A stretch of DNA of 46,101 bases from Planctomycetota bacterium (GCA_016872855.1 VGYV01000001.1:1-46101), one strand, 5' to 3'. Shown: positions 5,888 to 33,919, counted from the stretch's first letter. Notes: generated from the letters alone by a model not told the origin. Numbers and translations: made by a program.

Positions 5888-5933
5888 TAGCGGTGTGCTT
5901 GGGGAACAATGCCCCGGCCGGGAAGGAGGGCCT

Positions 5934-6899: not shown

Positions 6900-6912
6900 C
6901 CCGCCCCTCCGG

Positions 6913-6983: not shown

Positions 6984-6998
6984 CGGAGAGGCCGGGGC

Positions 6999-8444: not shown

Positions 8445-8446
8445 AC

Positions 8447-8490
8447 TAGCCCGCATTTCTCACCGCCCCGTCGGTGAGAAATGCGGGCTA
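8447..8490 (+). terminator. perfect 19-bp hairpin directly after the large subunit stop
   Basis: TAGCCCGCATTTCTCACCG - CCCCGT - CGGTGAGAAATGCGGGCTA. There is no T-tract. It shares the TAGCCCGC/GCGGGCTA ends with the 6897-6983 repeats. Confidence 0.45.
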
Positions 8491-8497
8491 GGAGCCT

Positions 8498-8546
8498 CGA
8501 GCGGCGAGCTTCGAGCCGCGAGCCAGGCCAGAAAGCTCGCCGCTCG
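8498..8546 (+). other. second intergenic hairpin (14-bp stem, 21-nt loop)
   Basis: CGAGCGGCGAGCTT ... AAGCTCGCCGCTCG. Confidence 0.4.
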
Positions 8547-8575
8547 TGGCTCGTGGCTGCGCATAGGAGTGTGGC

Positions 8576-9897
<1,322 letters not shown>

Positions 9898-9901
<4 letters not shown>

Positions 9902-11256
9902 GCGGGCGAGCCACAGTCCTGGTCGCAGACGACGAGCAGTCCATGCGGGACGCGATCTTCCAGGTCCTGGGGCCGGAGGGCTACCAGGTGACGGATGTGG
10001 AGTCGGGCGACGCGGCGCTCGCGGCCATCAAGAGCAGGCCATTCGACCTTGTGATCCTGGACCTGAGGATGCCGCGTGTGGATGGCCTGGAGGTCCTGCG
10101 CCGCATCCAGCAGGATAGCCCTGGTACAGCCGCGGTAGTGATCACGGGCTACGCCACGGTGGAGTCGGCGGTGGAGGCGATGAAGCTTGGCGCTGCGGAC
10201 TTCCTGCCCAAGCCTTTCACCCCGGACGTGCTCCGTCTCACCGTCAGTCGCGCGCTCCGCGGGGCGCGGATGGCCAAGGAGAACCTCCTCCTCAGGTCAG
10301 AGGTCGAGGAGTGCCGGGGCCGCGACTACGAGCTCATCGGCCAGAGCCAGGCGATGCGGCAGATATATGACCTCGTGCGCCGCGTCGGCCCTACAGACAG
10401 CACCGTCCTCATCACCGGCGAGTCCGGCACCGGTAAGGAGCTCGTCGCCCGGGCCATACGCGACCACAGCCCGCGGCGCGAGCGGCCCTTCGTCACGGTT
10501 GACTGCGGCTCACTGGTCGGCACCCTCTTCGAGAGCGAGCTTTTCGGCCACGTCAAGGGCTCTTTCACCGGCGCAACGAGCACGAAGCATGGCCGCTTCG
10601 AGCTGGCCGACGGCGGCACGATCTTCTTCGACGAGATCGCCAACGTGAATCCCGACATCCAGGCCAAGCTCCTCCGGGTGATCCAGGAGCGCGAGTTCAC
10701 CCGGGTCGGCGCCACGCAGGCGATCCCGGTAGACGTGCGGATCATCGCCGCCACGAGCCGGGACCTCCAGGAGGAGATCAGGGAGGGCCGCTTCCGGGAG
10801 GACCTCTTCTACAGGCTGTGCGTGGTGCCGATTGTCCTCCCGCCCCTCCGCCAGAGGCGCGAGGATGTGCCTCTCCTGGCCCATTACTTCCTCCAGAGGC
10901 AGAAGGGCCGGCACGGCAAGAAGCTCCTCGGCTTCAGCCACGAGGCGATGGAGGCGCTCGCTAACTACGATTGGCCTGGCAACGTCAGAGAGCTCCAGAA
11001 CGCCATTGAGCGGGCGATAGTCCTCTCCAGGGGCGACGTGATCACCCCGGCCGACCTCCTCTACTACGGTCCCACCCCCAAGCCGGAAGCCAAGGGCGAT
11101 GGTCTGGCTCCCCTGGCCGCGGTGGAAAGGGAGCACATCGCAAGGGTCCTCGACCACCATGGGGGGAACCGCACTGCCGCGGCCAAAGCCCTGGGGATTG
11201 ACCGCAAGACCCTCTGGCGCAAGATACGCGCGTACGGGCTGGGAGTGGGAGGGTGA
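9898..11256 (+). CDS. sigma54-dependent response regulator (NtrC family; HupR/HoxA-like context)
   Basis: The ATG overlaps the kinase stop (ATGA). It has a receiver (VLVADDEQS...LVILDLRMP), AAA+ Walker A GESGTGKE, an intact GAFTGA-type loop GSFTGA, and a C-terminal HTH AAKALGIDRKTLWRKI. Confidence 0.9.
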
Positions 11257-11358
11257 GCGCCTGGGAAACCGAGAAGGAAGCGAGTGCTCTCTGCCCGTAA
11301 GTGCGCCACCAGCAACGACTTACCGCTTCGGCCCAAAGGTAAGCTCCTGACCCAGCCG

Positions 11359-11400
11359 CCCAGGCGCGCACCTGCGCGCAACGGGGGGTGCGCGCCTGGG
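11359..11400 (+). terminator. 14-bp GC-rich hairpin downstream of the NtrC-like gene
   Basis: CCCAGGCGCGCACC - 14-nt loop - GGTGCGCGCCTGGG, about 100 nt after the stop at 11256. Confidence 0.4.
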
Positions 11401-11747
11401 GGGCACCCTTGGTACTCCCTTCGGGCCGATAGGGCGCCGAGGATTGGTCCAGTGGGATGAGGCGAGGGCGATTGTGCCGGGGCGGATTGCCTCACCATCG
11501 TGGCGTAATGCCCCGGCCGCCGGGCACGCCCCGGGCAACCTGTCGGCCCCTCTAAACATCCTCTCTGAATCCGCTGCCGACACTTACGCCCCTTGTAAGT
11601 CGTTATCTTCCAAAGGAGTAGGGCGCAGGTGCTCCTGTGGCCAGTGCGCTCGGCTCCGGCAGGTGGGCCGCCGTGTGTGCGGAGGGTGTGGGGGCCCGGG
11701 GCGCGGCACACCTTTTGCTCGCGCCCGGCCGGCCGGAGGATTGCGGC

Positions 11748-12587
11748 GTGTCGAACGCGGGCTTGCTCGTCGTGTGCGGGGATGTGGAGCGGAGAGAGGA
11801 TTTCGTTCGCACCCTTTCGGCCGCAGGCTGGGAGAGCGTCTTGTCTGCGTCGGGCATGACCGAGGCTGCGGGGCTGATGCGGAGCCAGCCATGCGCCTGC
11901 GTCATCGTTGACAGCGACCTGGCAGACATCCCTGGGCCGAAAGCCCTCCGCATCCTTCGGGAAATCTGCCCCCAAGCCAGGGTCATCTTCACCACACCGC
12001 AGAACAGCCGCGAGCTTGAGGCCCAGGTGCGGGCGCTTAACCCCTTCTACTACTACATCAGCTCGGCGGACCGGGCGGAGCTTGTCGCCGCGGTCCAGGA
12101 CGCGATCGGCGCGCCCAGACCACTCAGGGCGCGACCCAGGCCGAGGGTGCTTGTCGTGGACGATGACCCCAGCTACCAGACAACGGTCCGCGCGGTCCTG
12201 GAGGGGGCAGGATACGAGGTCTCCTCGGCCTACTCGGAGCGCGAGGGCCTCGAGATCGCCCGCCGCGAGAGGCCCGACGCCATCCTGCTGGACATCATCA
12301 TGGAGAGCGCCACCGATGGCTTCCTGTTCTGCCACGAGGCCAGGCACGACCCTGTTCTGAAGCACACCCCCATCGTCGGGGTCTCGGCCATCGAGAAGCG
12401 CCTCGGGCTTGGCCACCGCCCCGTGGAGGACTCCGACCTGTTTCCCGTGGATGCCTACCTGCGGAAGCCCCTGGTCCGCGAGGAGCTGCTTTCCGAACTC
12501 CACAGATTCGTTCCGGGGCCCTGCGATGAGCGAGAGGAACGCGCAGAAGCGGCACGATCACCTGCCCCGAGTTCTGGTGGTAGATGA
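11748..12587 (+). CDS. double receiver protein (degenerate REC + canonical REC)
   Basis: The GTG at 11748 has GGAGGA 8 nt upstream; track ORF 11637..12587 is the same frame. The first domain starts LLVVCGD, so the acidic pocket is degenerate. The second, RVLVVDDDPS...ILLDIIME...YLRKP, resembles the 5405 receiver. Confidence 0.7.
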   Translation: MSNAGLLVVCGDVERREDFVRTLSAAGWESVLSASGMTEAAGLMRSQPCACVIVDSDLADIPGPKALRILREICPQARVIFTTPQNSRELEAQVRALNPFYYYISSADRAELVAAVQDAIGAPRPLRARPRPRVLVVDDDPSYQTTVRAVLEGAGYEVSSAYSEREGLEIARRERPDAILLDIIMESATDGFLFCHEARHDPVLKHTPIVGVSAIEKRLGLGHRPVEDSDLFPVDAYLRKPLVREELLSELHRFVPGPCDEREERAEAARSPAPSSGGR

Positions 12588-13671
12588 CGAGGAGTGGATG
12601 CGCGACGCTTGCACGCAGATCCTCCAGCGCGAGGGGTTTGAGGTGGCCACCGCCGCCGACGCGCACACCGGGCTAAAGGCCGCGGGAGCGTGTCCGCCGG
12701 ACCTCATCCTGATAGACCTCCGCATGCCCGGGATGGACGGCATGGCATACCTGAAGGCGGTGAAGGCCCTCGACCCCGACATGGTGGGCATCGTGATCAC
12801 GGGCTACGCCACCCTCGAGGCAGCAGTGGAGGCGATGAAGGCCGGGGCATATGACTTCCTGCCGAAGCCCTTCAAGCCCGACGAGTTGCGCGCCCTAGTG
12901 CGGCGTGGGTTGGAGCATCGCCGCGCGGCCCTGCGCGTTTCCGGGCTCCTCCACGGCGAGGCGCGCACCGCCGACCTTTACCTGGCCATGCTCGCGCACC
13001 AGTTCAAGGCGCCCCTTGCTGCGCTCCGCCAATGTGTCGCCGTTGTCCTCCAGGGCTACGCGGGCGACATCAGCCCCCGCGCAAGAGGGATGATCGAGAT
13101 CGCCGCCCAACGGACCGACCAGATGATGCGCTTCGTGGACGATTGGCTCACCCTATCGCGCCTGGAGGAAGGCGAGGAACTCCAGAAGGTGCCCGACCTG
13201 GACCTCGTGGCGCTCGTGCGAAAAGCCCTCGACAGGGTGAAAGAACGCCCGGAGTCCCAGAAGCTCCTCATCCAATGCCTGGTCGTCGAGGACCCCGGCC
13301 CCATCGAGGCCGACGCCGGCGCGCTCGACGAGCTCTTCGCCAACCTCCTCGACAACGCGGTTCGATACACCCAACCCGGCGGCTCCGTCGCCGTGGAGGT
13401 CGGCGGAACAGACCGCGAAGCGTGGGTGAGGGTGCGGGACACCGGCCCGGGCATCTCCCCCGACGACCTGCGGCGCATCTTTGAGCCCTTCTTCAGGGGG
13501 AAAGCACAGAAGGGCATCCCCGGCACCGGCCTCGGGCTGCCCATCGCAAAACGCATTGCCGAGGCGCACCGCGGCAGGATAGAGGTCCAGACCGCGCTCG
13601 GACAAGGCTCCGCGTTCAAGGTCTCCCTCCCTCGCGGAGGGCAACGAGCGCCCGCGAAGAGCGGAGGGTGA
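12526..13671 (+). CDS. hybrid receiver-histidine kinase (REC-HisKA-HATPase)
   Basis: MSERNAQ...VLVVDDEEW...LILIDLRMPGMDG, then H-box-like LAHQFKAPL, then LLDNAVRYT, DTGPGI, GTGLGLPIA. The ATG chosen would overlap the previous gene by 62 nt, so the start is uncertain. Confidence 0.7.
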   Translation: MSERNAQKRHDHLPRVLVVDDEEWMRDACTQILQREGFEVATAADAHTGLKAAGACPPDLILIDLRMPGMDGMAYLKAVKALDPDMVGIVITGYATLEAAVEAMKAGAYDFLPKPFKPDELRALVRRGLEHRRAALRVSGLLHGEARTADLYLAMLAHQFKAPLAALRQCVAVVLQGYAGDISPRARGMIEIAAQRTDQMMRFVDDWLTLSRLEEGEELQKVPDLDLVALVRKALDRVKERPESQKLLIQCLVVEDPGPIEADAGALDELFANLLDNAVRYTQPGGSVAVEVGGTDREAWVRVRDTGPGISPDDLRRIFEPFFRGKAQKGIPGTGLGLPIAKRIAEAHRGRIEVQTALGQGSAFKVSLPRGGQRAPAKSGG

Positions 13672-14579
13672 GGTTGCCCGCAATGGAGACGACCGAAGAG
13701 GCGCGCACAACTGATGGGAAGGTTGGAGCGGTGCTCGTCGTCGGCGGCGGCGTAGCCGGCATGCAGGCATCGCTCGACCTCGCCGAGTCCGGCTACAAGG
13801 TCTATCTGGTCGAGAAGCGGCCCGCCATTGGCGGCGCGATGGCTCAACTAGACAAGACCTTCCCCACCAACGACTGCGCGATGTGCACGCTGGCCCCGCG
13901 ACTGGTGGACTGCGGGAAGCACCCCAACATCGAGAAACTCACCTACTCCGAGCTCCTGGCGCTCGATGGGACCCCCGGGCGCTTCCAGGCCAGGATTCTC
14001 AAGAGGGCTCGCTCCGTTGTCGAAGGCAAGTGCACCGGCTGCGGAGAGTGCATGGCCAACTGCCTGGTGCGGAACCGGGCCTACCTGGAGCCCGAGGAGC
14101 CCGAGCCGCTCGACCTGGCCCCCGATCAACTCGCCGAGGTCAACCGCATCATCGCAGAGCACGGCAACAGGCCGAGCTCAATCGTGCCCGTGCTCCAGGA
14201 CATCAACAACAAGTACCACTGGCTGCCTCCTGGCGCGGTGGGGCGCATCTCCGAGGCCGTGGGACTGCCCCTGGCGCGGGTCCTGCGCATTGCCACCTTC
14301 TACAACATGTTCAGTCTCCAACCCCGGGGCAAACACCTCATCAGGATTTGCCTCGGCACCGCCTGCCACGTCAAGGGCGCGGGCAGGATCGTCGAGAGGC
14401 TCGAGCGCGAGCTCGATGTCAAGGCGGGCGGCACGACCCGCGACAGGCGGTTCACCCTCGAAGCCGTGCGCTGCCTCGGCTGCTGTGGCCTGGCGCCGGT
14501 CGGGACCATCAACGACGACGTCCACGGCAAGATGACCCCGGCACAGTTCGTCAAGGTGCTCGACAACTACCCGGCGTAG
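13668..14579 (+). CDS. fusion protein: HdrA N-terminal FAD/Fe-S fragment + NuoE/HoxE-type [2Fe-2S] thioredoxin-like domain
   Basis: Residues ~20-130 (VLVVGGGVAGMQASLDLAESGYKVYLVEKRPAIGGAMAQLDKTFPTNDCAMC...KCTGCGECMANC) align with the first 130 aa of the HdrA at 28339. The rest (IVPVLQDINNKYHWL...ICLGTACHVKG...RCLGCCGLAP) is NuoE-like. The start may be GTG 13668, TTG 13674 or ATG 13683. Confidence 0.8.
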   Translation: MRLPAMETTEEARTTDGKVGAVLVVGGGVAGMQASLDLAESGYKVYLVEKRPAIGGAMAQLDKTFPTNDCAMCTLAPRLVDCGKHPNIEKLTYSELLALDGTPGRFQARILKRARSVVEGKCTGCGECMANCLVRNRAYLEPEEPEPLDLAPDQLAEVNRIIAEHGNRPSSIVPVLQDINNKYHWLPPGAVGRISEAVGLPLARVLRIATFYNMFSLQPRGKHLIRICLGTACHVKGAGRIVERLERELDVKAGGTTRDRRFTLEAVRCLGCCGLAPVGTINDDVHGKMTPAQFVKVLDNYPA

Positions 14580-14635
14580 CCGCAAGCGTCCCGCTTGCCG
14601 GCTTTCTCGACAACCGAGACGGTTGTCGCTACATC
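14576..14635. repeat. 60-bp double-hairpin REP-like element, copy 1 (intergenic)
   Basis: GTAGCCGCAAGCGTCCCGCTTGCCGGCTTTCTCGACAACCGAGACGGTTGTCGCTACATC. The reverse complement of 18999-19056 is nearly identical. It has two internal hairpins (GCAAGCG-TCC-CGCTTGC and CGACAACCG-AGA-CGGTTGTCG). Confidence 0.85.
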
Positions 14636-14651
14636 GGAGGAAGGCACAGCG

Positions 14652-15035
14652 GTGGGAAAGCTGCGACCCGAGGACATGGACAGGATCGCCGAGAGGATGC
14701 AGAAGGCGATGTCGCTGCGCCTGGGCGCGGGGAGGGTCAAGCTCACTGTCCACATGGGCACCTGCGGCATCGCCGCCGGCGCCCGCAAGATAATGAGCGC
14801 GATCATGCGCTGCCTGGACGAATCCGGGGCCGCCGACGTGATCGTCACCACCTCAGGCTGCGCCGGGCTGTGCAGCAAGGAACCGATGATGACAGTGGAG
14901 CTTGCCGGCCAGGCCCCCGTGAAGTATGTGGACCTCACCGAGGAGAAGGCCACGCGCATTTTCGCCGAGCACGTCGTCAACGGCAAGATTGTCGCCGATT
15001 GCGCACTTGCCATCGGCAGCGAGTGGACGCTATGA
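14652..15035 (+). CDS. thioredoxin-like [2Fe-2S] ferredoxin (HndB-like)
   Basis: The GTG at 14652 follows GGAGGAAGG. The track start at 14595 lies inside the REP element and is unlikely. Motifs are HMGTCGIAAGA...SGCAGLCSKEP. Confidence 0.7.
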   Translation: MGKLRPEDMDRIAERMQKAMSLRLGAGRVKLTVHMGTCGIAAGARKIMSAIMRCLDESGAADVIVTTSGCAGLCSKEPMMTVELAGQAPVKYVDLTEEKATRIFAEHVVNGKIVADCALAIGSEWTL

Positions 15036-16825
15036 ACGCCTATCGCATGCATCTGATGCTGTGCGCCGGAACCGGTTGCGTGTCGAACGGCTCCTACCGG
15101 ATCAAGGCGGCCCTGGAGCGCGAGCTGGCGGCGCGCAACCTCCAGGACGAAGTCGCCGTCGTCATGACAGGCTGCAACGGCTTCTGTGCCCAGGGCCCCG
15201 TGATGACCGTGCAGCCCGATGGCATCTTCTATCAGTTGCTGTCGGATGAAGATATCCCGCACCTTGTCGAAGAGCACTTCCTGAAGGGCCGGCCGGTCAA
15301 GCGCCTCATGTACACCCCGCCCGCCGAAAAGGCGCCGGTGCCGAAGATGAGCGACATCGGCTTCTTCAGGAAGCAGCGGCTCATCGCCCTGCGCAACCGC
15401 GGCCTGATTGACCCTGAGAGGATTGACGAGTACATCGCCCGGGGCGGCTACAAGGCCCTCGTCAAGGCCCTCACCTCGATGAGCCGTGAGGAGATCATCA
15501 ACGAGGTCAAGAAGTCCGGCCTCCGAGGCCGCGGCGGCGCAGGCTTCCCCACCGGGCTCAAGTGGGAGCTCACCGCCAACCAGCCGGGCGACGAGAAGTT
15601 CATCGTCTGCAACGGCGACGAGGGCGACCCCGGGGCCTTCATGGACCGCAGCATCGTGGAGTCCGACCCCCATTCGGTGCTTGAGGGGATGCTCATCGGC
15701 GCGAAGGCAATCGGCGCCACACATGGCTTCGTCTACATAAGGCAGGAGTACCCCCTGGCCCTCGAGAGACTCGCCCTGGCTTTGGGCCAGGCCAGGGACT
15801 ATGGGCTCCTGGGCACCGACATCCTCGGGAGCGGCTTCGACTTCGACATCTCGGTCCACCGCGGGGCCGGGGCCTTCGTGTGCGGGGAGGAGACCTCGCT
15901 CATTGGGTCCCTGGAGGGACGGCCGCCCGAGCCCCGCATCAGGCCCCCCTTCCCTGCCGAGTCCGGGGTCTGGGGGAAGCCAACCTGCATCAACAATGTT
16001 GAGACCTGGGCCACCGTGCCGGAGATCATCAACCGCGGTGCCGAGTGGTTCGCCCAAATCGGCACGGAAACCAGCAAAGGCACAAAGGTCTTCTCCCTTG
16101 TCGGCAAGGTCAAGAACACCGGCCTGGTCGAGGTGCCCATGGGCATCACCCTGCGGGAGATGGTCTTCGACATTGGGGGCGGCATCCAGGGCGACAGGGC
16201 CTTCAAGGCCGTCCAGACCGGCGGCCCATCGGGCGGATGCATCCCGGCCTCTCTCCTCGACCTGCCGATAGACTACGAGCGCCTCACCGAGGCCGGCTCC
16301 ATCATGGGCTCCGGCGGCATGATCGTGATGGACGAGGATACCTGCATGGTGGACGTCGCCAGGTACTTCCTCGAGTTTCTGCGGGATGAGTCCTGCGGCA
16401 AGTGCACCGCCTGCCGGGAGGGCGTGGACGCGATGTACCAGATGGTGGCGAACATCTGTGAAGGGAAGGGCAAGCCGGACGACATCCCGCTGCTTGAAGA
16501 GCTGGGCCAGGCAGTGAAGGACGGCTCGTTGTGCGCCCTCGGCGGAACAGCGCCAAACCCGGTGCTGAGCACCTTGCGCTACTTCAAGGATGAGTACGAG
16601 GCCCACATCACCGACCGCCGCTGCCCGGCCGGCGTGTGCAAGGCTCTCATCACGTACCGCATCAACCCCGAAAGGTGCAAGGCATGCCTCCTGTGCAACA
16701 AGAACTGTCCCACGGGAGCCGTCTCGGGCGAGAAGAAGAAGCCCCAGACGATCGCCCAGGAGAAATGCATCAAGTGCGGGGTCTGCCGGGATGTGTGCAA
16801 GTTCGAGGCGGTGACGGTGCAATGA
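15032..16825 (+). CDS. NuoF/HndC/HydB-type NAD(P)H-binding flavoprotein with N-terminal [2Fe-2S] and C-terminal 2x[4Fe-4S] domains
   Basis: The ATG overlaps the previous stop (ATGA). Motifs: GRGGAGFPTGLKW, NGDEGDPGAFMDR, ESCGKCTACREG, and C-terminal CKACLLCNKNCP / CIKCGVCRDVC. The real gene is the 3' part of track ORF 13883..16825. Confidence 0.9.
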   Translation: MNAYRMHLMLCAGTGCVSNGSYRIKAALERELAARNLQDEVAVVMTGCNGFCAQGPVMTVQPDGIFYQLLSDEDIPHLVEEHFLKGRPVKRLMYTPPAEKAPVPKMSDIGFFRKQRLIALRNRGLIDPERIDEYIARGGYKALVKALTSMSREEIINEVKKSGLRGRGGAGFPTGLKWELTANQPGDEKFIVCNGDEGDPGAFMDRSIVESDPHSVLEGMLIGAKAIGATHGFVYIRQEYPLALERLALALGQARDYGLLGTDILGSGFDFDISVHRGAGAFVCGEETSLIGSLEGRPPEPRIRPPFPAESGVWGKPTCINNVETWATVPEIINRGAEWFAQIGTETSKGTKVFSLVGKVKNTGLVEVPMGITLREMVFDIGGGIQGDRAFKAVQTGGPSGGCIPASLLDLPIDYERLTEAGSIMGSGGMIVMDEDTCMVDVARYFLEFLRDESCGKCTACREGVDAMYQMVANICEGKGKPDDIPLLEELGQAVKDGSLCALGGTAPNPVLSTLRYFKDEYEAHITDRRCPAGVCKALITYRINPERCKACLLCNKNCPTGAVSGEKKKPQTIAQEKCIKCGVCRDVCKFEAVTVQ

Positions 16826-17211
16826 AGCTCGAAGAGGTGCGGAGAACCCTGGACGCTGAGTGGTCTGGCCGCAGGGCAAGCCGCGCGGACTCCATGGGCA
16901 CGGAGGTGCTCTCGTGCCACGCGAGCGACCTGATGAGCGACGTCTTGACCTCCAGGGGCGCGGGCTCGCTCCTCCTCACCGGGCTGACCAACGCCCAGGT
17001 GGTGCGGGTGGCCGTGGTGTCGGACTTCGCCGCTGTCTGCTTCGTCCGCGGCAAGAAACCCCAGTCCGAGGCCGTCCAGGTGGCCGAGGAGAGCCAGATC
17101 CCGCTACTCGTCACGCCCATGTCCATGTACGAGTCTTGCGGCCGCCTCTACACCAAGGGGCTGCCCGTTGGCGACAGAGCAAAGGAAGCTCCGAGTTGCC
17201 AGAAGAAGTGA
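16822..17211 (+). CDS. DRTGG-domain protein
   Basis: ASDLMSDVL...LLLTGLTNAQVVRVA...IPLLVTPMSMYESCGRLY. The ATGA overlaps the nuoF-like stop. Confidence 0.65.
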   Translation: MKLEEVRRTLDAEWSGRRASRADSMGTEVLSCHASDLMSDVLTSRGAGSLLLTGLTNAQVVRVAVVSDFAAVCFVRGKKPQSEAVQVAEESQIPLLVTPMSMYESCGRLYTKGLPVGDRAKEAPSCQKK

Positions 17212-18146
17212 CCAAGATCCAGGAGATGATCTACGAGCTCCTGGTTCGTGAAGTGATGACGAAGGAGGTCATAAGCGTCATGCCCTCCACGCCGATGAGC
17301 GACCTGCGCGAGATCCTGCGCGCCAAGCGAATCTCCGGCACCCCGGTCGTTGAGGACGGCAGACTGGTCGGCATGATCAGCATCGAGGACTTCATCAAGT
17401 GGCTCTTCGACGGCGGCCAGGCCAGCCCCGTAGCCGACCGGATGACGAGCGACGTGAGGACCATCTACGACGACGAGCCACTCGTCCAGGCCGTCAACAA
17501 GCTCGAGCGGCTGGGGTTCGGGCGCCTGCCGGTCGTCGCGCGCGATACCGGGCGCCTCGTGGGGGTCATCACGAAGGGCGACATCATCCGCGGGCTGCTG
17601 AGGCACCTGGAGGTGGACTACCGCAACGCGGAGATGCGGGGGGCAAGGTCGAGCCACATCTTCGAGGACATCCAGGCCGACAGGGCCGCGCTCAAGCTCG
17701 AGTACCAGGTGCGCGGCGGGGACTTCAGCCGGGGCGGCGCCAGCGCCGTCAGGCTCAAGACGACCTTGCTCCGACTGGGCATAGACCCCCAGACGACGCG
17801 CCGCGCCGCCGTCGCCGCCTACGAGGCCGAGATGAACCTCATCGTCTTCACCGAGGGCGGCTGCATAAGGGTCGAGGTCGAACCGGGCATCGTGCGGCTG
17901 CTGGCCGAGGACGACGGCCCCGGCATCCCGGACGTCGAGCGGGCAATGCAGCCCGGCTTCTCCACGGCACCGGACTGGGTGAGGGAACTCGGGTTCGGCG
18001 CGGGAATGGGGCTGCCGAACATCAAGAAATGCGCCGACCGGCTGCGAATCGACTCGGTGGTCGGAAGAGGGACACGGCTGGAGGCCGAAATCCTCATGGA
18101 GCGCCAGGGTGAACCTGAACGAGATAGCGCACAAACTCGGGCTTGA
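17208..18146 (+). CDS. CBS-pair + GHKL (HATPase_c) protein, anti-sigma/serine-kinase-like
   Basis: GTGA overlap start. Two CBS motifs (VMTKEVISV...GTPVVEDGRLVGMIS and MTSDVRTI...LPVVARDTGRLVGVITKGDI), then DDGPGIPD...GFGAGMGLPN. Confidence 0.7.
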   Translation: MTKIQEMIYELLVREVMTKEVISVMPSTPMSDLREILRAKRISGTPVVEDGRLVGMISIEDFIKWLFDGGQASPVADRMTSDVRTIYDDEPLVQAVNKLERLGFGRLPVVARDTGRLVGVITKGDIIRGLLRHLEVDYRNAEMRGARSSHIFEDIQADRAALKLEYQVRGGDFSRGGASAVRLKTTLLRLGIDPQTTRRAAVAAYEAEMNLIVFTEGGCIRVEVEPGIVRLLAEDDGPGIPDVERAMQPGFSTAPDWVRELGFGAGMGLPNIKKCADRLRIDSVVGRGTRLEAEILMERQGEPERDSAQTRA

Positions 18147-18456
18147 GGTGAGAGCCGGCGGCAGCGCCCTGACCACAGAGGTGCGCGGCGGCTACGCCAG
18201 CGACCTCCTCAGCGACGTCATCGCCCACGGCCAGGAGGGGGACCTCTGGGTGACGCTTCAGGCGCACGAGAACACCGTCCCCGTGGCCATCCTGAAGAAG
18301 CTGGCGGGGATAGTCCTGGTGAACGGCCGCGAGCCCGAGGCCGAAACGCTCCAGAAGGCCAGGGCGGAGGATATCCCCGTCCTAGTCAGCGCACTGCCAG
18401 CGTTCGAGCTGATCGGTCGCCTGTACGCCCTGGGCGTGCCAGGAATAAGGACGTGA
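18109..18456 (+). CDS. DRTGG-domain protein (second copy)
   Basis: ASDLLSDVIAH...LWVTLQAHENTVPVA...IPVLVSALPAFELIGRLY, paralogous to 16822..17211. Confidence 0.65.
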   Translation: MNLNEIAHKLGLEVRAGGSALTTEVRGGYASDLLSDVIAHGQEGDLWVTLQAHENTVPVAILKKLAGIVLVNGREPEAETLQKARAEDIPVLVSALPAFELIGRLYALGVPGIRT

Positions 18457-19205
18457 AGGAAGTGCGTGCCGACCTGCACATACACACCTGCCTTTCGCCC
18501 TGCGCGGAGCGCGACATGTCGCCTCCGGCCGTGGTGAGGACGGCTCGTGAGAGGGGGCTGGACCTGATCGCGGTGTGCGACCACAACTCGGCTGAGAACG
18601 TCGGGGCGGCCACCCGCGCCGCACGCGACACCGGCCTGGCCGTCATCGGCGGCATGGAGATATGCACGCGCGAGGAGGTCCACGTGCTGGGCATCTTCGA
18701 CGACGGCCTCGCCCTCAGCTCGGCGCAGCAGGCCGTTTACCAGAACCTCAGCGGCGAGAACAACCCCGAGGTCTTCGGCGAGCAACTCGTGATGAACGAG
18801 CGGGGGGAGGTCGTCGGTCACAACAGCCGACTTCTCATCGGGGCAACCGGCCTGTCCTTGAAGGAGGTGGTCGGAACCATCCACAGCCTTGGGGGCCTCG
18901 CCATCGCCGCCCACGTGGACCGGCCCAGATTCAGCGTCATCAGCCAACTCGGCTTCGTCCCGCCGGGGCTCGAGCTCGACGGGGCGGAGGTGTGCTCTGA
19001 TGTAGCGACAACCGTCTCGGTTGTCGATACCGCGCAAGCGGGACGCTTGCGGCTACCAGAGGGCCTCGCCGTCGTCAGGTCGTCCGACGCCCACCGCCCC
19101 GAGGAGATCGGCTCCAGATGCACCCGTCTCCTCGTGGAGGAGCCGACAGCCTGCGAGGTCGGGAAGGCCCTGCGAAGGATTGAGGGCCGGAGGATTCTTG
19201 TGTAA
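18453..19205 (+). CDS. PHP-domain (polymerase/histidinol-phosphatase family) protein
   Basis: ADLHIHTCLSPCA...IAVCDHNS...AHVDRP...SSDAH metal-ligand pattern. The reading frame runs through REP copy 2. Confidence 0.75.
   Translation: MKEVRADLHIHTCLSPCAERDMSPPAVVRTARERGLDLIAVCDHNSAENVGAATRAARDTGLAVIGGMEICTREEVHVLGIFDDGLALSSAQQAVYQNLSGENNPEVFGEQLVMNERGEVVGHNSRLLIGATGLSLKEVVGTIHSLGGLAIAAHVDRPRFSVISQLGFVPPGLELDGAEVCSDVATTVSVVDTAQAGRLRLPEGLAVVRSSDAHRPEEIGSRCTRLLVEEPTACEVGKALRRIEGRRILV
18999..19056. repeat. REP-like element, copy 2 (inverted, inside the PHP gene)
   Basis: Reverse complement of copy 1 with a few changes. It encodes ...DVATTVSVVDTAQAGRLRLP... of the PHP protein. Confidence 0.85.
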
Positions 19206-19714
19206 TGGAAGACCTGTCGCTTCACATCCTCGACATTGTGGACAACTCGCTTCGTTCCGAGGCGAAGCTGGTGGAGATCTCACTCGTCGAGGACACTGAG
19301 CAGGACCTGCTCACGCTCGAGGTGAGGGACGACGGGAAGGGCATGCCGGCCGAGGAGTGCGCTCGGGCGGCCGACCCGTTCTTCACCACCAAGCCGGGGA
19401 AGAGGTTCGGCCTCGGCCTGGCGCTCCTGGCTCAGGCGACCAGAGAGGCCGGGGGAGAACTCAAGGTGTCCTCCTCCCCAGGTGCTGGGACGACGGTGCG
19501 GGCGACCTTCCGCTACGGCCACCCCGACCGCAAGCCCCTGGGCGACATGGCGGCAACGCTGGAGACGCTGGTGGCAGGACACCCCGAGGTTGCCTTCGTC
19601 TACGAGCACAGGCGGGTGCCCCGGGCACCCGGAGCCGGCGACGGGTCGGGCAACGGGCGCACAGATGTTGCTCTGCTCGATACCAGGAAGCTGAGGCGGC
19701 CATGGTCAACCTGA
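19205..19714 (+). CDS. small GHKL-type ATPase (HATPase_c-only protein)
   Basis: LHILDIVDNSL (N-box-like), RDDGKGMP, GLGLALL. The ATG overlaps the previous TAA by 1 nt. Confidence 0.65.
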   Translation: MEDLSLHILDIVDNSLRSEAKLVEISLVEDTEQDLLTLEVRDDGKGMPAEECARAADPFFTTKPGKRFGLGLALLAQATREAGGELKVSSSPGAGTTVRATFRYGHPDRKPLGDMAATLETLVAGHPEVAFVYEHRRVPRAPGAGDGSGNGRTDVALLDTRKLRRPWST

Positions 19715-22700
19715 CGATTGACGGCCAGCAGGTGGGTGTGGAGCCCGGCACGAGCGTGTTGGATGCATGCCGGAAGCTGGGGATGAAGATCCCCACGCTG
19801 TGCCACCATAGGTCGCTGCCGGCCTACGGCGCCTGCCGGCTCTGCCTCGTCGAGGTCGAGGAGCGCGGTCGGAGCAGGATTCAGGCCTCCTGCCTCTACC
19901 CGGCGCGGGAGGGCCTCGTGGTGCGCACGAACACCGACGCGGTCGTCCGCACGCGCCGCATCATTGCCGAGTTGCTCCTGGCCCGCTGCCCAAGTTCCGA
20001 GAAGGTCAGGGAGGTGGCCGCGGAGCTAGGCGTTAGCGAGACCAGGTTCCCGAAGAAGAACGAGGACTGCATGCTCTGCGGCCTGTGCATCAGGGTCTGC
20101 TCCGAGCTGATGAAGAGCGGGGCGATCGACTTCTCCGCTCGCGGCAACCGGCGCAAGGTCGGCCCGGCCTACGACAGACGTTCGCCTGTGTGCATGGCCT
20201 GCGGCGCTTGCCAGGTGGTCTGCCCGACTGGGGCGGTTGACCTCAGCAAGGTCTCCGCGCGCGAGCCACGGCCCACACCAGCGCACTTCGACGCGGGACT
20301 CGTCCCGCGCCCCTCAATCTACATCCCGTACCCCCAGGCCATACCCAAGGTGCCAGTCATTGATCGCGAGACGTGCATGTACTTCCGCAAGGGCGAGGCG
20401 GTGGCCGCGTGCAGGTCGTGCGCCAACTTCTGCGAGGCCAAGGCCATTGATTACACCCAACAGGACAGTGCCCTTGCCCTGGACGTGGGCGCCGTGGTGA
20501 TCGCGCCGGGCTTCGAGATCTGCGACCACACCCTGCGTGCAGAGTACGGCTTCGGGCAGTACCCGAACGTCATCAGCAGCCTCCAGTTCGAGCGCCTGCT
20601 TTCCGCCAGCGGGCCGCATCAGGGCCATGTCGTGCGCCCGTCCGACGGCAAGGAGCCCAGGCGCATCGCCTCCATCCAGTGCGTAGGCTCGCGCGAGGAC
20701 GAGGCCAGCTACTGCTCCTCCGTGTGCTGCATGTACGCCGTCAAGCACGCCCTCATGGCAAGAGAGCACCTGCCAGGGGTCGAGCACACGGTCTTTTTCA
20801 TGGACCTCAGGGCCTTTGGAAAAGGCTTCGACGCTTATTACGAGCGCGCCCAGCACGAGGGGGTGCGCTTCGTGCGGGCGCGCCCCGCAACCGTCGAGGA
20901 ACTCGCCGAGGAGCATAACCTCCGCATCAAGTACCTCAACGAGCAAGGCGAGTTCAAGGACGAGGAGTTCGACCTCGTTGTGCTCTCGTGCGGCATGCGG
21001 CCCTCGCCGGGCGCCGCGGAGGCGGCCGAGCGGCTCGGCGTGGCCCGCGACGAGGACGGCTACAGCCTTGTTGAGCGCCTTGCCCCCCTGGATACGAATC
21101 GCGCCGGCGTCTACGTGTGCGGCCCGTTTGCGGAGCCGAAGGACATTCCCGAGACAGTCATGCAGGCGAGCGGCGCCGCCGCGCGCGCCATGGCCCTCCT
21201 GGCCGAGGCGCGTGGCACCATGGTGCAGCCGAAGCATTACCCGCCCGAGAGGGACGTGTCGGGCGAGGAGCCCAGGATCGGCGTCTTCGTCTGCCACTGC
21301 GGGCGCAACATTGGCGGGGTGATCCGCGTCCCGGAGGTCGTGGAGTACGCCCGGAGCCTGCCCAATGTGGTCCACGCCGAGGAGAACCTCTATACGTGCT
21401 CCACGGACAGCCAGCAGAAGATCCGCGAGGCGATTGAAAAGCACAGGCTCAACCGCGTCCTGGTCGCCTCCTGCACGCCGCGGACCCACGAGCCGCTGTT
21501 CCGCGACACCCTGCGCGAGGCGGGCCTGAACCAGTACCTCTTCGAGATGGCTAACGTCCGCGACCAGTGCTCCTGGGTGCACATGCACGAGCCCGACAAG
21601 GCGACGGCCAAGGCCAAGGCCCTGGTCCGCATGGGAATCGCAAAGGCTCGCCTCATCGAGCCGCTTGCGGAACGAACGCTCCCGCTGAACCACGGCGCGC
21701 TGGTCATCGGCGGCGGGCTTGCCGGGATGACCTCCGCGCTCGCCCTGGCCGACGAAGGCTTCAACGTCCACCTCATCGAGCGCGAGGCCACCCTCGGCGG
21801 CCACGCTAAGCACGTGCAGTACCTCCCAGGCGGGGAGAACCCGCAGGCATTCCTTGCGGAGACGATCCGGCGGGTCCTGGACCACCCACGCATCGCCGTC
21901 CACCTCGGCGCCACCCTTGCCCGCCTTGAGGGGTTCGTGGGCAACTTCAAGACCCAGCTCAGCAGGAACGGCACCACTGAGGAGGTAGAGCACGGGGTGA
22001 TTGTGGTGGCCACGGGCGCCCAGACCCACAAGCCGACCGAGTACCTCTACGGCGAGAACGAGCGGGTGGTGACCCAGGTGGAGTTCGAGCAGATGCTCGC
22101 CGCCGGGGGCGTAGAGGCGGAGAATGTCGTGATGATCCAGTGCGTCGGCTCGCGCGACGACACCCGCCCCTACTGTAGCCGGCTGTGCTGCTCGCACGCC
22201 ATCCGCAACGCCTTGAAGCTCAAGGAGCTGCGCCCCCACGCCAACGTCTTCGTACTCTACCGCGACGTGCGCACGTACGGGTTCCGCGAGAAGTACTACC
22301 GCCTCGCGCGCGAGAAGGGCGTGCGGTTCATCCGCTACGAGCCGGAGCGCAGGCCGGTCGTTTCAGCTGAAAATGGCAAGCTGCGCGTTACGACGTGGGA
22401 CCCGATCCTTGAGAGGACGCTGGCGATTGATTGCGACCGGCTGGTGCTCTCGCCTGCCATCGTGGCGCGAGAGGACGGTCAAGCGCTTGCGCAGATGCTC
22501 AAGGTGCCGCTGAACCAGGAGCGCTTCTTCCTGGAGGCGCACCTGAAGCTGCGGCCGGTGGACTTCGCGACCGACGGCGTGTTCCTGTGCGGCCTGGCCC
22601 ACGCGCCCAAGACCCTCGACGAGACGCTCGCCCAGGCCACTGCCGCCGCATCCCGCGCGGCGACCATTCTCGGCAAGGACAAGCTCCCGCTGGAGTCGGC

Positions 22701-22947
22701 CATCTCCGAGGTGATTGACGCGAACTGCGACGGCTGCGCCTATTGCATTGACCCGTGCCCGTACAAGGCGCTGACGCTCATCGAGTACATGCGGGGGGGC
22801 GCGATCAAGAAGACCGTGGAGACCAACGAGGCGCTCTGCAAGGGCTGCGGCGTGTGCCAGGCCACTTGCCCCAAGCGCGGCATCTTCGTCCGCCACTACA
22901 AGCTCGACCAGATCGCCGCAGTGGTGGCTGCCGCACTGGAGCCATGA
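19702..22947 (+). CDS. hdrA: fusion protein: NuoG/HydA-N-terminal [2Fe-2S]+[4Fe-4S] ferredoxin module + HdrA lacking its N-terminal ~130 aa + second HdrA-like flavoprotein module
   Basis: The ATG at 19702 lies inside track ORF 19357..22947. MVNLTIDGQQV...CHHRSLPAYGACRLCLVEV is NuoG-N-like. From RPSIYIPYPQAIPKVPVID onward it is collinear with residues ~140-1001 of the HdrA at 28339 (SLQFERLLSASGPHQGH, CVGSRE, GPKDIPE, IGVFVCHCGRNI, THEPLF, VIGGGLAGM...). Confidence 0.85.
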   Translation: MVNLTIDGQQVGVEPGTSVLDACRKLGMKIPTLCHHRSLPAYGACRLCLVEVEERGRSRIQASCLYPAREGLVVRTNTDAVVRTRRIIAELLLARCPSSEKVREVAAELGVSETRFPKKNEDCMLCGLCIRVCSELMKSGAIDFSARGNRRKVGPAYDRRSPVCMACGACQVVCPTGAVDLSKVSAREPRPTPAHFDAGLVPRPSIYIPYPQAIPKVPVIDRETCMYFRKGEAVAACRSCANFCEAKAIDYTQQDSALALDVGAVVIAPGFEICDHTLRAEYGFGQYPNVISSLQFERLLSASGPHQGHVVRPSDGKEPRRIASIQCVGSREDEASYCSSVCCMYAVKHALMAREHLPGVEHTVFFMDLRAFGKGFDAYYERAQHEGVRFVRARPATVEELAEEHNLRIKYLNEQGEFKDEEFDLVVLSCGMRPSPGAAEAAERLGVARDEDGYSLVERLAPLDTNRAGVYVCGPFAEPKDIPETVMQASGAAARAMALLAEARGTMVQPKHYPPERDVSGEEPRIGVFVCHCGRNIGGVIRVPEVVEYARSLPNVVHAEENLYTCSTDSQQKIREAIEKHRLNRVLVASCTPRTHEPLFRDTLREAGLNQYLFEMANVRDQCSWVHMHEPDKATAKAKALVRMGIAKARLIEPLAERTLPLNHGALVIGGGLAGMTSALALADEGFNVHLIEREATLGGHAKHVQYLPGGENPQAFLAETIRRVLDHPRIAVHLGATLARLEGFVGNFKTQLSRNGTTEEVEHGVIVVATGAQTHKPTEYLYGENERVVTQVEFEQMLAAGGVEAENVVMIQCVGSRDDTRPYCSRLCCSHAIRNALKLKELRPHANVFVLYRDVRTYGFREKYYRLAREKGVRFIRYEPERRPVVSAENGKLRVTTWDPILERTLAIDCDRLVLSPAIVAREDGQALAQMLKVPLNQERFFLEAHLKLRPVDFATDGVFLCGLAHAPKTLDETLAQATAAASRAATILGKDKLPLESAISEVIDANCDGCAYCIDPCPYKALTLIEYMRGGAIKKTVETNEALCKGCGVCQATCPKRGIFVRHYKLDQIAAVVAAALEP

Positions 22948-23366
22948 TGAGCGAAACAGACTTCGAGCCGATCATCGTCGCCTTTTGTTGCAACTGGTGC
23001 TCCTACGCCGGGGCCGACCTGGCCGGCACATCGCGCCTCCAGTACCCGCCCAACGTGCGGATCGTGCGCGTGATGTGCTCCGGCATGGTGCACCCGAACC
23101 TCGTGATGGACGCGCTCACCAAGGGCGCGGACGGGGTGATGATCTGCGGCTGCCACCCGGGCGACTGCCATTACCTGGAGGGCAACCTCAAGGCCCAGAA
23201 GCGCGCGGAAGCAATCCAGCTCATGCTTGAAGACTTCGGCCTGGAGCAAGAGCGCTTCCGCCTGGAGTGGATTTCGGCCTCCGAGGGGCCGCGTTTCGCC
23301 AAGGTGATGACCGAGATGGCCGAGACGATCAAGGCAATCGGCCCAAGCCCGTACCGCGCAGCGTAG
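22944..23366 (+). CDS. mvhD: MvhD-type [2Fe-2S] hydrogenase delta subunit
   Basis: IIVAFCCNWCSYAGADLAG...RVMCSGMV...GCHPGDCHY signature. ATGA overlap with the hdrA stop. Confidence 0.9.
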   Translation: MMSETDFEPIIVAFCCNWCSYAGADLAGTSRLQYPPNVRIVRVMCSGMVHPNLVMDALTKGADGVMICGCHPGDCHYLEGNLKAQKRAEAIQLMLEDFGLEQERFRLEWISASEGPRFAKVMTEMAETIKAIGPSPYRAA

Positions 23367-26747: not shown

Positions 26748-27233
26748 ATGCCCGAGGAGGAGCCCGTGGTGCAGGTGGGCGACCTTGACCTTCGGTTTGC
26801 CGACGAGGTGGCCTCGCAGCCTGGCGGCGAGCACATCCGGCGCTGCTTCGCCTGCGGCACGTGTGCCGCCGGTTGTCCCATCACCGAGGTGGACCCCGAT
26901 TACAACCCCAGGAAGATCGTCCGCCAGATCCTGTTCGGCATGCGCGACGAGGTGCTCTCCTCGCCCCGCATCTGGTACTGCCTTGTCTGCTACCGGTGCT
27001 ATGCGCGATGCCCACAGAAGGTGAACTTCACCGACGTGATGCGCGCGCTCCGCTATCTCGCCATCAAGGGCCGTCATGCGCCCAGCGACGTCCTGAAGCG
27101 CATCGAGGAGCTCGACCGCCTGGCGCAGAGCCTCCGCCACAACCTCGTCCAGTACAGCTTCGAGAAGCGTTCGGAGCTCCTGGACGCCTTTCGGAACAAG
27201 GTCGAGGAGCAACTGAAGGGGATGAGCACGTGA
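26748..27233 (+). CDS. HdrC-like 2x[4Fe-4S] protein
   Basis: CFACGTCAAGCP and CLVCYRCYARCP motifs, 161 aa, with GAGAGGAG SD. Confidence 0.8.
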   Translation: MPEEEPVVQVGDLDLRFADEVASQPGGEHIRRCFACGTCAAGCPITEVDPDYNPRKIVRQILFGMRDEVLSSPRIWYCLVCYRCYARCPQKVNFTDVMRALRYLAIKGRHAPSDVLKRIEELDRLAQSLRHNLVQYSFEKRSELLDAFRNKVEEQLKGMST

Positions 27234-33916: not shown

Positions 33917-33919
33917 GCA

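Follow-up and report, generated by a model that had tools for sequence, protein, structure and literature searches.

Can one HdrA flavoprotein be encoded in two separate pieces, each joined to a different subunit of another electron-bifurcating machine? The question is raised by a stretch of 46,101 nucleotides from a Planctomycetota bacterium (GCA_016872855.1, VGYV01000001.1:1-46101; hereafter the window), in which an initial annotation, made from the sequence alone, described an HdrA whose N-terminal part is fused to NuoE and whose remainder follows a NuoG-like module in another gene. Electron bifurcation is the route by which anaerobes obtain electrons of very low potential and, to our knowledge, the coupling of a HydBC/Bfu module to HdrA has so far been seen in one enzyme only, the class II benzoyl-CoA reductase (BCRII), whose structure was resolved in 2026. 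We describe here the two fusion proteins of the window, between which HdrA is divided without loss, their recurrence in several phyla, and the reasons for which this operon probably encodes a hybrid of the Bfu and Hdr systems.

Two Fusion Proteins Share a Single HdrA Unit

The window has a G+C content of about 66%, and its real genes are marked by a high G+C content at third codon positions (GC3). The gene annotated from 13668, whose true start is probably the ATG at 13683, encodes a protein of 303 residues (Table 1). Rossmann/FAD families were detected by Pfam at residues 22-59, and residues 23-135 could be aligned without a gap to residues 8-120 of the intact HdrA encoded further downstream in the window (65% identity, E = 3e-46 in BLASTP) as well as, in a comparison with solved structures, to residues 144-257 of the methanogen HdrA (5odc_A). 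This N-piece contains the GxGxxG motif for FAD (GGGVAG), the CxxC of thioredoxin reductase (TrxR) type in FPTNDCAMC and the first Cys motif of the inserted ferredoxin (CTGCGECMANC). It is followed, at residues 159-301, by a NuoE-type [2Fe-2S] domain (PF01257, E = 1e-48), whose top match among solved structures was HydC (8a6t_C, E = 5e-42), NiFe-HydC (7t2r_C) being matched as well.

The second fusion protein, of 1081 residues, opens with a BfuA/NuoG-type module, and was 51% identical to the intact 1001-residue HdrA over 922 residues, reaching HdrA residue 1000. This alignment nominally starts at HdrA residue 107 but the real homology begins around residue 121, the BLAST overlap at HdrA 107-120 being caused in part by the resemblance between the second Fe-S motif of the NuoG module and the first ferredoxin motif of HdrA. 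In a three-way alignment of both fusion proteins with the intact HdrA, the two Cys motifs of the inserted ferredoxin were found on either side of the breakpoint, which lies in a loop some 10 residues long, and no HdrA residue was lost or duplicated at the break. The initial annotation had proposed that the N-piece is collinear with the intact HdrA before giving way to NuoE, that the gene at 19702 starts with a NuoG/HydA-type N-terminus, which indeed matches BfuA (9mqx_A) and the HydA N-terminus, and that HdrA resumes there exactly where the other piece stops. All of this was borne out, both regions being HdrA-like in alignments with the intact protein.

The divided HdrA is of the tandem (fused-dimer) type, with a first unit made of TrxR1 and the inserted ferredoxin and a second one made of an N-terminal [4Fe-4S] domain, TrxR2 and a C-terminal ferredoxin. 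The break is confined to the first TrxR unit. The second is whole in the 1081-residue protein (N-terminal [4Fe-4S] domain at residues 516-660, TrxR2 at 661-1000 and C-terminal ferredoxin at 1001-1081), where Pfam detected Pyr_redox_2 at 667-792 and Fer4 at 1006-1059. The remainder of the split unit contains a variable linker, the second ferredoxin Cys motif (C225, C237, C240, C244), the second FAD motif GVYVCG..PKDIP, the [4Fe-4S] motif QCVGSRE..YCSSVCC (QCVGSRE..YCSSVCCMYAVK) and the Lys of CCMYAVK. This Lys aligns with Lys409 of 5odc_A and with Lys280 of BamE, the tandem HdrA of BCRII, the corresponding residue of TrxR2 being an Arg. The 1081-residue protein has no GxGxxG for TrxR1 (none in residues ~181-515), GGGLAG being present for TrxR2 only, and the TrxR-like FAD features of HdrA, i.e., GxGxxG together with the C-terminal FAD motif, were found only in the two polypeptides taken jointly. 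The inserted 2x[4Fe-4S] ferredoxin is also divided between the chains, motif 1 (C122/C125/C128/C132) being located on the N-piece and motif 2 on the NuoG fusion.

The Split Is Shared by Loci From Several Phyla

To describe the distribution of the split, we used contigs encoding homologues together with a scan in which each GTDB species was represented by a single genome, and mapped the domains of the window on these loci. Eighteen loci, including the window, were assessable, i.e., they had an N-piece and enough downstream DNA. The gene encoding the NuoG N-terminal module fused to the HdrA remainder accompanied the N-piece in all of them, and the gene order was the same in 18/18: the HdrA N-piece fused to, or just before, NuoE, then (HndB-like), NuoF, zero to four regulatory genes and the NuoG fusion, which was followed by MvhD in at least 14 of the 18. 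These loci are labelled Planctomycetota, Acidobacteriota, Desulfobacterota, Dehalococcoidia, Eubacteriales, "Spirochaetes", Thermoplasmata and uncultured archaeon. The fission/fusion architecture proposed for the window is thus present in other genomes and in several phyla.

The 303-residue protein was 100% identical to an NCBI protein (P0001) labelled Planctomycetes, from a metagenome-assembled genome (MAG), and the identical protein was present on 4 contigs. Its length and domain pair were shared by 118 of the 120 best clusters (65-83% identity), and at least eight representatives in a 50%-identity library matched it over both domains. Four of eight such representatives are longer (418-436 residues), and two of these (P0124 and P0127) clearly start with the N-terminal [4Fe-4S] domain of HdrA, RIGVYVCHCGTNI..., so that the same breakpoint exists in single-unit HdrA. 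The identical breakpoint was therefore recovered in two types of HdrA, the tandem type and the single-unit type that begins with the N-terminal domain. Proteins of the partner type, in which the BfuA module precedes the HdrA remainder, were also abundant, either with ~1080 residues or, as single-unit forms, with ~586-590 residues, and the searches for the two architectures gave more than 5000 hits. The labels of the partner proteins include Phycisphaerae, Sedimentisphaerales, Thermoguttaceae, Aerophobetes, Aminicenantes, WOR-3, Bipolaricaulota, Acidobacteriota, Anaerolineales, Thermodesulfobacteriota, Dehalococcoidia and Promethearchaeota.

These data bear on the trivial explanation of the split, namely that it is an artefact (frameshift, chimeric assembly or pseudogene) of a metagenome-assembled contig. 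The contig does derive from a MAG and the two HdrA pieces are 5 kb apart. However, the occurrence of the identical protein on four contigs, the common architecture of nearly all the best clusters, the matches over both domains at the 50% identity level, the identical synteny of the 18 loci, drawn from many independent assemblies and phyla, and the intact open reading frames (ORFs) with gene-like GC3 all argue against it. We thus consider that an artefact has practically no chance of being the explanation; a frameshift or misassembly, which the initial annotation had named as a possible cause of the split, was considered and is ruled out by the homologous clusters and the synteny.

The surroundings of the split cluster were more variable. 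HdrC and/or HdrB were encoded directly upstream of it in loci L008, L011, L017, L018 and L053 and directly downstream in L001, both proteins adjoining the cluster in L001, L008 and L018 and HdrB in L011, L017 and L053. MvhG and MvhA followed in the window, L003, L008, L012 and L019, and FlxC/B/A-like genes came after the MvhD of the split cluster in L005, L019, L025 and L054. Locus L008 reads HdrC-HdrB-[HdrA 5' part::NuoE]-NuoF-[NuoG-N::HdrA 3' part]-MvhD-MvhG-MvhA; judged by this gene order, a cassette of nuoEFG type lies within the hdrA of a canonical hdr-mvh cluster. In L083 (Dehalococcoidia), an unsplit tandem HdrA-MvhD-NuoE-NuoF-NuoG-N cluster (2812-9654) lies directly beside the split cluster on the same contig; this is the bamEFGHI gene order, and was seen only there. 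Across the loci compared, the constant features are the split itself and the fusion on the NuoG side, the fusion of the N-piece with NuoE being frequent and not obligatory.

Other arrangements were observed around or within the split genes. In L001, the split cluster is directly preceded by ApbE and by all the genes of an Rnf operon (rnfC, D, G, E, A, B; 3464-9465), and HdrC, HdrB and a further tandem HdrA of 1007 residues are found downstream, where the hydrogenase would be. HdrC-like and FrhB-like genes also follow the split cluster in L082. In a protein of 439 residues (P0136), an HdrB-type CCG domain comes before the HdrA N-piece, which is followed by the beginning of a NuoE domain; this protein is either an additional fusion or a frameshifted gene call.

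Conservation of the Two Pieces and Free-Standing N-Pieces

The residues expected to bind the cofactors were conserved on both sides of the split. In 14 fusion proteins, down to 40% identity, G26, G28, G31, F65, P66, T67, D69, C70, C73, C122, C125, C128 and C132 of the N-piece were invariant, as were the NuoE ligands C228, C233, C269 and C273. In 16 partner proteins and in an alignment of 122 sequences, the four Cys of the second ferredoxin motif, CxGSRD..CSxxCC, the second FAD motif and the Lys equivalent to Lys409 of 5odc were conserved, so that all eight Cys of the inserted ferredoxin were invariant. Identity across the family ranged from 48 to 91% for the N-piece, from 36 to 81% for the NuoE domain and from 4 to 78% for the linker. 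In the divergent members, the linker was only 4-32% identical versus 48-70% for the N-piece, which was more conserved than the NuoE domain.

In four loci, L017 and L025 (Desulfobacterota), L054 and L083 (Dehalococcoidia), a stop codon or a change of frame occurs within the linker, and the N-piece is a separate ORF of ~130-160 residues directly upstream of nuoE (Table 1). Two database proteins, P0147 and P0187, also look like free-standing N-pieces. In L017 (position 9877) and L025 (position 10160), an in-frame TGA replaces the second Cys codon of the CxxC of the N-piece (NDCAM-TGA-IISP), a position that is listed as CxxU for selenoprotein HdrA (PMC13188914). No Rfam model of a selenocysteine insertion sequence matched around the TGA in L017, and a hairpin located 18 nt 3' of the TGA, common to L017 and L025, folded no better than shuffled sequence. 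The assignment of selenocysteine to this codon, which we consider probable, is thus based on the in-frame TGA at a known CxxU position. A free fragment of about 130 residues that probably bears selenocysteine would make sense only as a trans complement of the remainder.

According to the initial annotation, a complete HdrA would exist only if the products of the two genes assemble. Comparative evidence supports this view, i.e., the synteny in 18/18 loci, the invariant ligands, the lack of a GxGxxG for TrxR1 in the 1081-residue protein, the stronger conservation of the N-piece compared to the NuoE domain and the existence of N-pieces as free ORFs.

The Module Between the Two Pieces

The genes located between the two HdrA pieces, and the domains fused to these pieces, were compared with the subunits of the Bfu family. 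The 597-residue BfuB matched the bifurcating NiFe-HydB from residue 2 to residue 594 (7t2r_B, E = 1e-254), and its Cys motifs were conserved. Pfam detected Complex1_51K, NADH_4Fe-4S, Fer4 and 2Fe-2S_thioredx in this protein, corresponding to an N-terminal [2Fe-2S] domain, the FMN/NADH site, the NuoF [4Fe-4S] and a C-terminal 2x[4Fe-4S] domain. The BfuA module (residues 1-180 of the second fusion) has a [2Fe-2S] and two [4Fe-4S] clusters (two CxxCxxCxxxC motifs) and no His-ligated cluster, as in Type 2 BfuA; its residues 2-180 matched the BfuA of the bifurcating tungsten aldehyde oxidoreductase (9mqx_A) with E = 2e-38 at the sequence level. In an AlphaFold2 model of the 1081-residue protein alone, the mean predicted local distance difference test (pLDDT) score was 80, with values above 90 for the BfuA module and of 69-85 at the junction. 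The best overall fold match of this model in Foldseek was the HdrA 5odc_A, and its BfuA module superposed on 9mqx_A with a root-mean-square deviation of 1.6 A over 181 columns (40% identity).

The sequence-level features of BfuA, BfuB and BfuC were thus all present, as were those of HdrA, the latter across two polypeptides, and the module enclosed by the HdrA pieces is, as far as its domains tell, a genuine Bfu core. No NCBIfam model reached its cut-off for either fusion protein. We also considered the idea that the ferredoxin of the 1081-residue protein is self-sufficient through the second CxxCxxCxxxCP motif of the NuoG module, and rejected it because residues 2-180 match a complete stand-alone BfuA having both motifs (9mqx_A) and because the ferredoxin motif of the N-piece is invariant.

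The small HndB-like protein, whose homologues have about 127 residues, is encoded at the same position in most loci. The four accessory genes located between bfuB and the NuoG fusion are all present in L001 and L013 as well, and L020 has the four of them after bfuB on a contig that stops before the NuoG gene. Only one is present in L003, and none in L005, L008, L010, L011, L012 and others. Their products are probably outside the complex and may be regulatory.

Genomic Surroundings in the Window

The features of the window are listed in Table 1. The large subunit of the hydrogenase encoded downstream of MvhD has the motifs CGVCPWSH and DPCLSCATH, with the N- and C-terminal CxxC pairs for Ni, as well as a C-terminal extension. 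With these ligands, a small subunit and the adjacent MvhD, the enzyme is a candidate group 3c (Mvh-type) [NiFe] hydrogenase. The best NCBIfam models for the hydrogenase subunits and MvhD were VhuA, VhuG and VhuD, all below the cut-off. The products of the second redox cluster (26748..34762) are candidate partners or acceptors of the split system. In the hydrogenase encoded upstream, the large subunit lacks the C-terminal peptide and the small subunit lacks an obvious Tat-type start. With the neighbouring kinase and regulators, this region (5772-13671) resembles an H2 sensor cascade of the HupUV/HoxBC type that would control the operon, and a set of sensor hydrogenase, kinase and regulator genes was also found upstream of the split cluster in L003.

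Directly beyond the Flx-like genes, on the minus strand, we found a gene for a CobW/HypB-type GTPase (34776-35459), which may be a hydrogenase nickel-insertion factor. Two ORFs of about 1250 residues are located further out (1100-4849 and 36587-40312); one gave a weak CBM9-like match and the other no Pfam match at all.

Table 1. Position of the genes and domains discussed in the text, in the window and in four loci with a free N-piece.
Locus	Feature	Coordinates	Strand	Evidence
Window	Upstream regulatory set, including PAS histidine kinase, sigma-54 response regulator and two further response-regulator proteins	5772..13671	+	
Window	Sensor-type [NiFe] hydrogenase small subunit	~5934-6899	+	Pfam, sequence
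Window	Sensor-type [NiFe] hydrogenase large subunit	~6999-8444	+	Ends at DPCLFCTVH
Window	HdrA-N::HydC/NuoE (BfuC) fusion, 303 aa	13668..14579	+	Pfam, BLASTP, PDB matches
Window	HdrA N-piece, aa 20-135	13725..14072	+	65% identity to intact HdrA 8-120
Window	Linker N-piece/NuoE helical bundle, aa 136-158	14073..14141	+	Poorly conserved
Window	HydC/NuoE thioredoxin-like [2Fe-2S] domain (BfuC)	14142..14570	+	PF01257
Window	HndB-like small thioredoxin-like [2Fe-2S] protein	14595..15035	+	Weak PF01257 match
Window	BfuB/HydB, NuoF-like, 597 aa	15032..16825	+	Full-length 7t2r_B match; Pfam
Window	Four accessory/regulatory genes (CBS+HATPase, DRTGG, PHP, HATPase)	17226..19714	+	Pfam
Window	BfuA/NuoG-type module::HdrA-remainder fusion, 1081 aa	19702-22947	+	
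Window	BfuA/NuoG-type N-terminal module, aa 1-180	19702..20241	+	Fer2_4, Fer4_7 (Pfam); 9mqx_A
Window	Remainder of split HdrA unit, aa ~181-515	20242..21246	+	Aligns with 5odc_A 262-515 and intact paralogue
Window	Unsplit second HdrA unit	21247..22944	+	Aligns with 5odc_A 2-237 and 515-642
Window	MvhD [2Fe-2S] adaptor	22944..23366	+	PF02662, E 3e-57
Window	MvhG-like small subunit	23641-24603	+	Pfam
Window	MvhA-like [NiFe] large subunit	24610-26058	+	Pfam
Window	HycI-type maturation protease	26145-26744	+	Pfam
Window	HdrC-like	26748-27233	+	Pfam
Window	FrhB-like (FrhB/FdhB-like)	27230-28342	+	Pfam
Window	Intact tandem HdrA, 1001 aa	28339-31344	+	Pfam
Window	Second MvhD	~31412-31810	+	Pfam
Window	FlxC/FlxB/FlxA-like NAD(P)H module genes	31807-34762	+	Pfam
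L017	Free N-piece/nuoE region	9694-10640		
L025	Free N-piece/nuoE region	9983-10950		
L054	Free N-piece/nuoE region	9935-10900		
L083	Free N-piece/nuoE region	9900-10900		

Relationship to Known Bifurcating Complexes

The closest comparison is provided by BCRII of Geobacter metallireducens (BamBCDEFGHI, or Bam-Bfu), described in a cryo-electron microscopy preprint (10.64898/2026.04.10.717634), which shares with the split system the Bfu module (BamG = NuoE, BamH = NuoF, BamI = BfuA-like), a tandem HdrA (BamE) and the MvhD adaptor (BamF). In BamE, the bifurcating FAD is located in the first TrxR unit, beside the Lys and the CxxC, the second unit being considered structural (10.64898/2026.04.10.717634). 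However, BCRII has its HdrA homologue in a single chain (BamE), with BamG and BamI as small subunits of their own, whereas the split system has an HdrA that is interrupted in the inserted ferredoxin domain, one piece being fused to the homologue of NuoE and the other to that of BfuA. In BCRII, BamI delivers to the C-terminal ferredoxin domain, whereas the tether is here at the inserted one, and the place of the tungsten aldehyde oxidoreductase (AOR; BamBC) is taken by a candidate Mvh-type [NiFe] hydrogenase or by Flx genes. No AOR-family domain (BamB) was detected among the operon genes scanned with Pfam. Without a tungsten AOR, with an HdrA that is not a single subunit and with another tether site, the split system is not a class II benzoyl-CoA reductase.

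All the domains and ligands of HdrA from the methanogen complex MvhAGD-HdrABC (5ODC) are present in the window, together with MvhD, MvhG-like and MvhA-like subunits and a maturation protease, and HdrC and HdrB are adjacent in several split loci (e.g., L008). In contrast to the methanogen complex, HdrA is here split and tandem, no HdrB is adjacent in the window, and a complete Bfu module would occupy the site at which free ferredoxin is normally reduced. The split system occurs in bacteria and in archaea that are not methanogens, and CoM-S-S-CoB is therefore an unlikely substrate. With NiFe-HydABCSL of Acetomicrobium mobile (7T2R) and the rest of the Bfu family (HydABC, NfnABC, Wor-Bfu 9MQX), the system has in common a full-length BfuB with all the cluster domains, BfuC, a Type-2-like BfuA module and a [NiFe] hydrogenase as the likely third-substrate module. 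It differs in that the hydrogenase is predicted to be attached via MvhD and HdrA and not directly to BfuA, in that BfuA and BfuC carry the HdrA pieces, and in the presence of a second site of the bifurcating flavin type.

Fused double (tandem) HdrA proteins are known in archaea (PMC11237513). The order MvhD(FlxD)-FlxC-FlxB-FlxA of the FlxABCD-HdrABC system of Desulfovibrio was recovered after the split cluster in the four Flx-bearing loci mentioned above and after the intact HdrA in the window. We know of no Bfu module and no split HdrA described for either the Desulfovibrio system or the archaeal tandem proteins.

The combination of a HydBC/Bfu module with HdrA in one complex has been predicted and classified (PMC9304861) and resolved (10.64898/2026.04.10.717634). 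The suggestion of the initial annotation that the combination of the window was uncharacterised must thus be given up for HydBC/NuoEF with HdrA, since BCRII has both in its cryo-electron microscopy structure. It stands for the split and for the pairing with Mvh-type hydrogenase or Flx, for which we found no description. No account of a split HdrA was found in full-text literature searches, nor in PMC9304861, PMC11237513, PMC6085437, PMC5736913, PMC9325076 and PMC7325909, and the split HdrA architecture with its Bfu cassette appears to be undescribed.

Discussion

From the domain content of the two fusion proteins, the position of the breakpoint, its conservation and the synteny, we consider it rather probable that this operon specifies an electron-bifurcating supercomplex of hybrid Bfu-Hdr(-Mvh) type, whose assembly, cofactor content, wiring distances and direction of electron flow we infer. 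The gene structure ties one half of the TrxR1/ferredoxin unit of HdrA covalently to BfuC and the other half to BfuA. In the simplest history, a cassette composed of bfuC/nuoE, (the hndB-like gene), bfuB/nuoF and the Fe-S N-terminal module of bfuA/nuoG would have been inserted once into the ferredoxin loop of hdrA, leaving the 5' part of hdrA fused to bfuC, or just upstream of it in some lineages, and the 3' part fused behind the bfuA module. The further idea that a complete BfuABC machine became, at the gene level, a "domain insertion" in a surface loop of HdrA is put forward tentatively, its chances being in our opinion somewhat short of even.

The first TrxR unit would fold and bind FAD only upon assembly of the two polypeptides, and would be the counterpart of the unit that carries the bifurcating FAD in BamE and in methanogen HdrA. 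Four of the eight ferredoxin Cys would come from the N-piece, along with the CxxC(U) motif and the beta-alpha-beta element that binds ADP, and the other four from the remainder, along with the proximal [4Fe-4S] cluster and the Lys at the flavin N5. By the ligation pattern usual in ferredoxins, three Cys of one motif and a single Cys of the other bind a given cluster, so that each [4Fe-4S] cluster of the inserted ferredoxin would be ligated by both chains, stapling them together. The NuoE homologue of BCRII contacts the BfuA homologue through its N-terminal helical bundle (10.64898/2026.04.10.717634), and the two tether points should therefore be close to each other in a Bfu complex. Since BfuC and BfuA are neighbours in Bfu complexes, the two tethers would fix the Bfu core to HdrA at the inserted ferredoxin domain, which is the low-potential exit in methanogen HdrA and in BamE (10.64898/2026.04.10.717634).

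The electron path, in which we have less confidence than in the assembly, could then start with the oxidation of H2 at MvhAG, from where electrons would pass via MvhD to the split FAD and bifurcate there. The high-potential electron would go via the proximal cluster to a partner of the HdrC/HdrB type or of the HdrC-like/FrhB-like type, and the low-potential electron via the split ferredoxin and the BfuA clusters to the BfuBC core, reducing NAD+ and ferredoxin. We favour the direction of H2 oxidation because MvhD and the candidate Mvh-type hydrogenase are encoded downstream of the split HdrA and a sensor hydrogenase cascade upstream, the latter, with its kinase and sigma-54 regulator, suggesting H2-induced uptake. 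Several observations weigh against this scheme. A rough neighbor-joining tree of the TrxR1 remainder, without support values, interleaved split and intact forms and does not resolve a single origin. The N-piece stitched to the TrxR1 remainder gave, in AlphaFold2 run without an alignment, an uninformative model (pLDDT 32). In the loci in which Flx replaces Mvh, a balance from the donor to NAD+ plus ferredoxin is awkward if Flx also uses NADH. Finally, the proposed wiring departs from that of BCRII, the one relative with a solved structure, and the only pointer to a connection of the Bfu core with the low-potential exit is the fusion point.

Two other readings of the electron flow have to be weighed against the Bfu core as output, the one that we prefer. 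In BCRII, the Bfu module feeds the input side of HdrA, i.e., the C-terminal ferredoxin and MvhD, and not the inserted ferredoxin (10.64898/2026.04.10.717634), and the same supercomplex could operate in this manner here: NADH and reduced ferredoxin would be confurcated by BfuBC, and electrons of about -400 mV would enter HdrA to be bifurcated to an HdrBC-type acceptor and to an acceptor of very low potential, or else would drive H2 evolution at Mvh. Some split loci (e.g., L001) have HdrC/HdrB and another HdrA in place of a nearby hydrogenase, so that the Bfu module would be the sole obvious donor there, in line with this reading, as is the Rnf operon directly upstream in L001. However, the fusion point is at the inserted ferredoxin domain and not on the side used by BCRII, MvhD, the canonical input adaptor, is retained beside the fusion gene and followed by a hydrogenase or Flx donor module, and the H2-sensor cascade of the window points to H2 uptake. 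We thus regard a Bfu input as unlikely, if deserving some weight.

The split TrxR1 could also be a scaffold or a plain electron wire, HdrA and MvhD merely linking MvhAG to BfuA, with the N-piece as a retained docking element. There would then be no second bifurcation, and the complex would be functionally a NiFe-Bfu hydrogenase using H2, NAD+ and ferredoxin. One of the two TrxR units of BamE was indeed judged non-bifurcating and mainly structural (10.64898/2026.04.10.717634). The hydrogenase large subunit of the window scores equally against VhuA/MvhA (5odc_F, 2e-119) and the NiFe-HydL of NiFe-Bfu (7t2r_D, 1e-119), and no HdrB with CCG domains is encoded beside the split cluster in this window, two points that also tell against the output that we prefer. 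However, it is the split unit and not the second one that keeps, across phyla, the hallmark Lys, the CxxC (CxxU in two lineages), the proximal [4Fe-4S] and both FAD motifs, and HdrB, with or without HdrC, adjoins the split cluster in six of the other loci. We therefore give little credence to a simple wire.

If BfuABC was indeed inserted as a whole into HdrA, the more tentative idea mentioned above, the bifurcating FAD site and two [4Fe-4S] clusters would each be assembled from two polypeptides. Two bifurcation sites of different mechanism would then be linked in series, with no diffusible carrier in between, and the low-potential electrons leaving the HdrA flavin would be bifurcated again by the flavin/Fe-S centre of Bfu. 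This would amount to a widespread natural "two-stage" bifurcation device, present from Planctomycetota to Asgard-labelled archaea and wired unlike benzoyl-CoA reductase.

The coupling of Bfu to HdrA is widespread, occurring in many phyla together with modules of hydrogenase, Flx or HdrBC type. Which surfaces are likely to be in contact can be read from the fusions, namely the inserted ferredoxin domain of HdrA with BfuA and BfuC, and these fusions offer a natural split-protein system in which the assembly of a bifurcating FAD site and of inter-chain Fe-S clusters can be probed, as well as a testable case of the insertion of a multi-gene cassette into a gene without destruction of that gene. 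Current labels such as "FAD-dependent oxidoreductase," "NuoE," and "2Fe-2S cluster-binding protein" hide this system. Because of such generic labels and of the lack of any NCBIfam model at cut-off, the H2 and redox metabolism of many uncultured anaerobes is probably misread.

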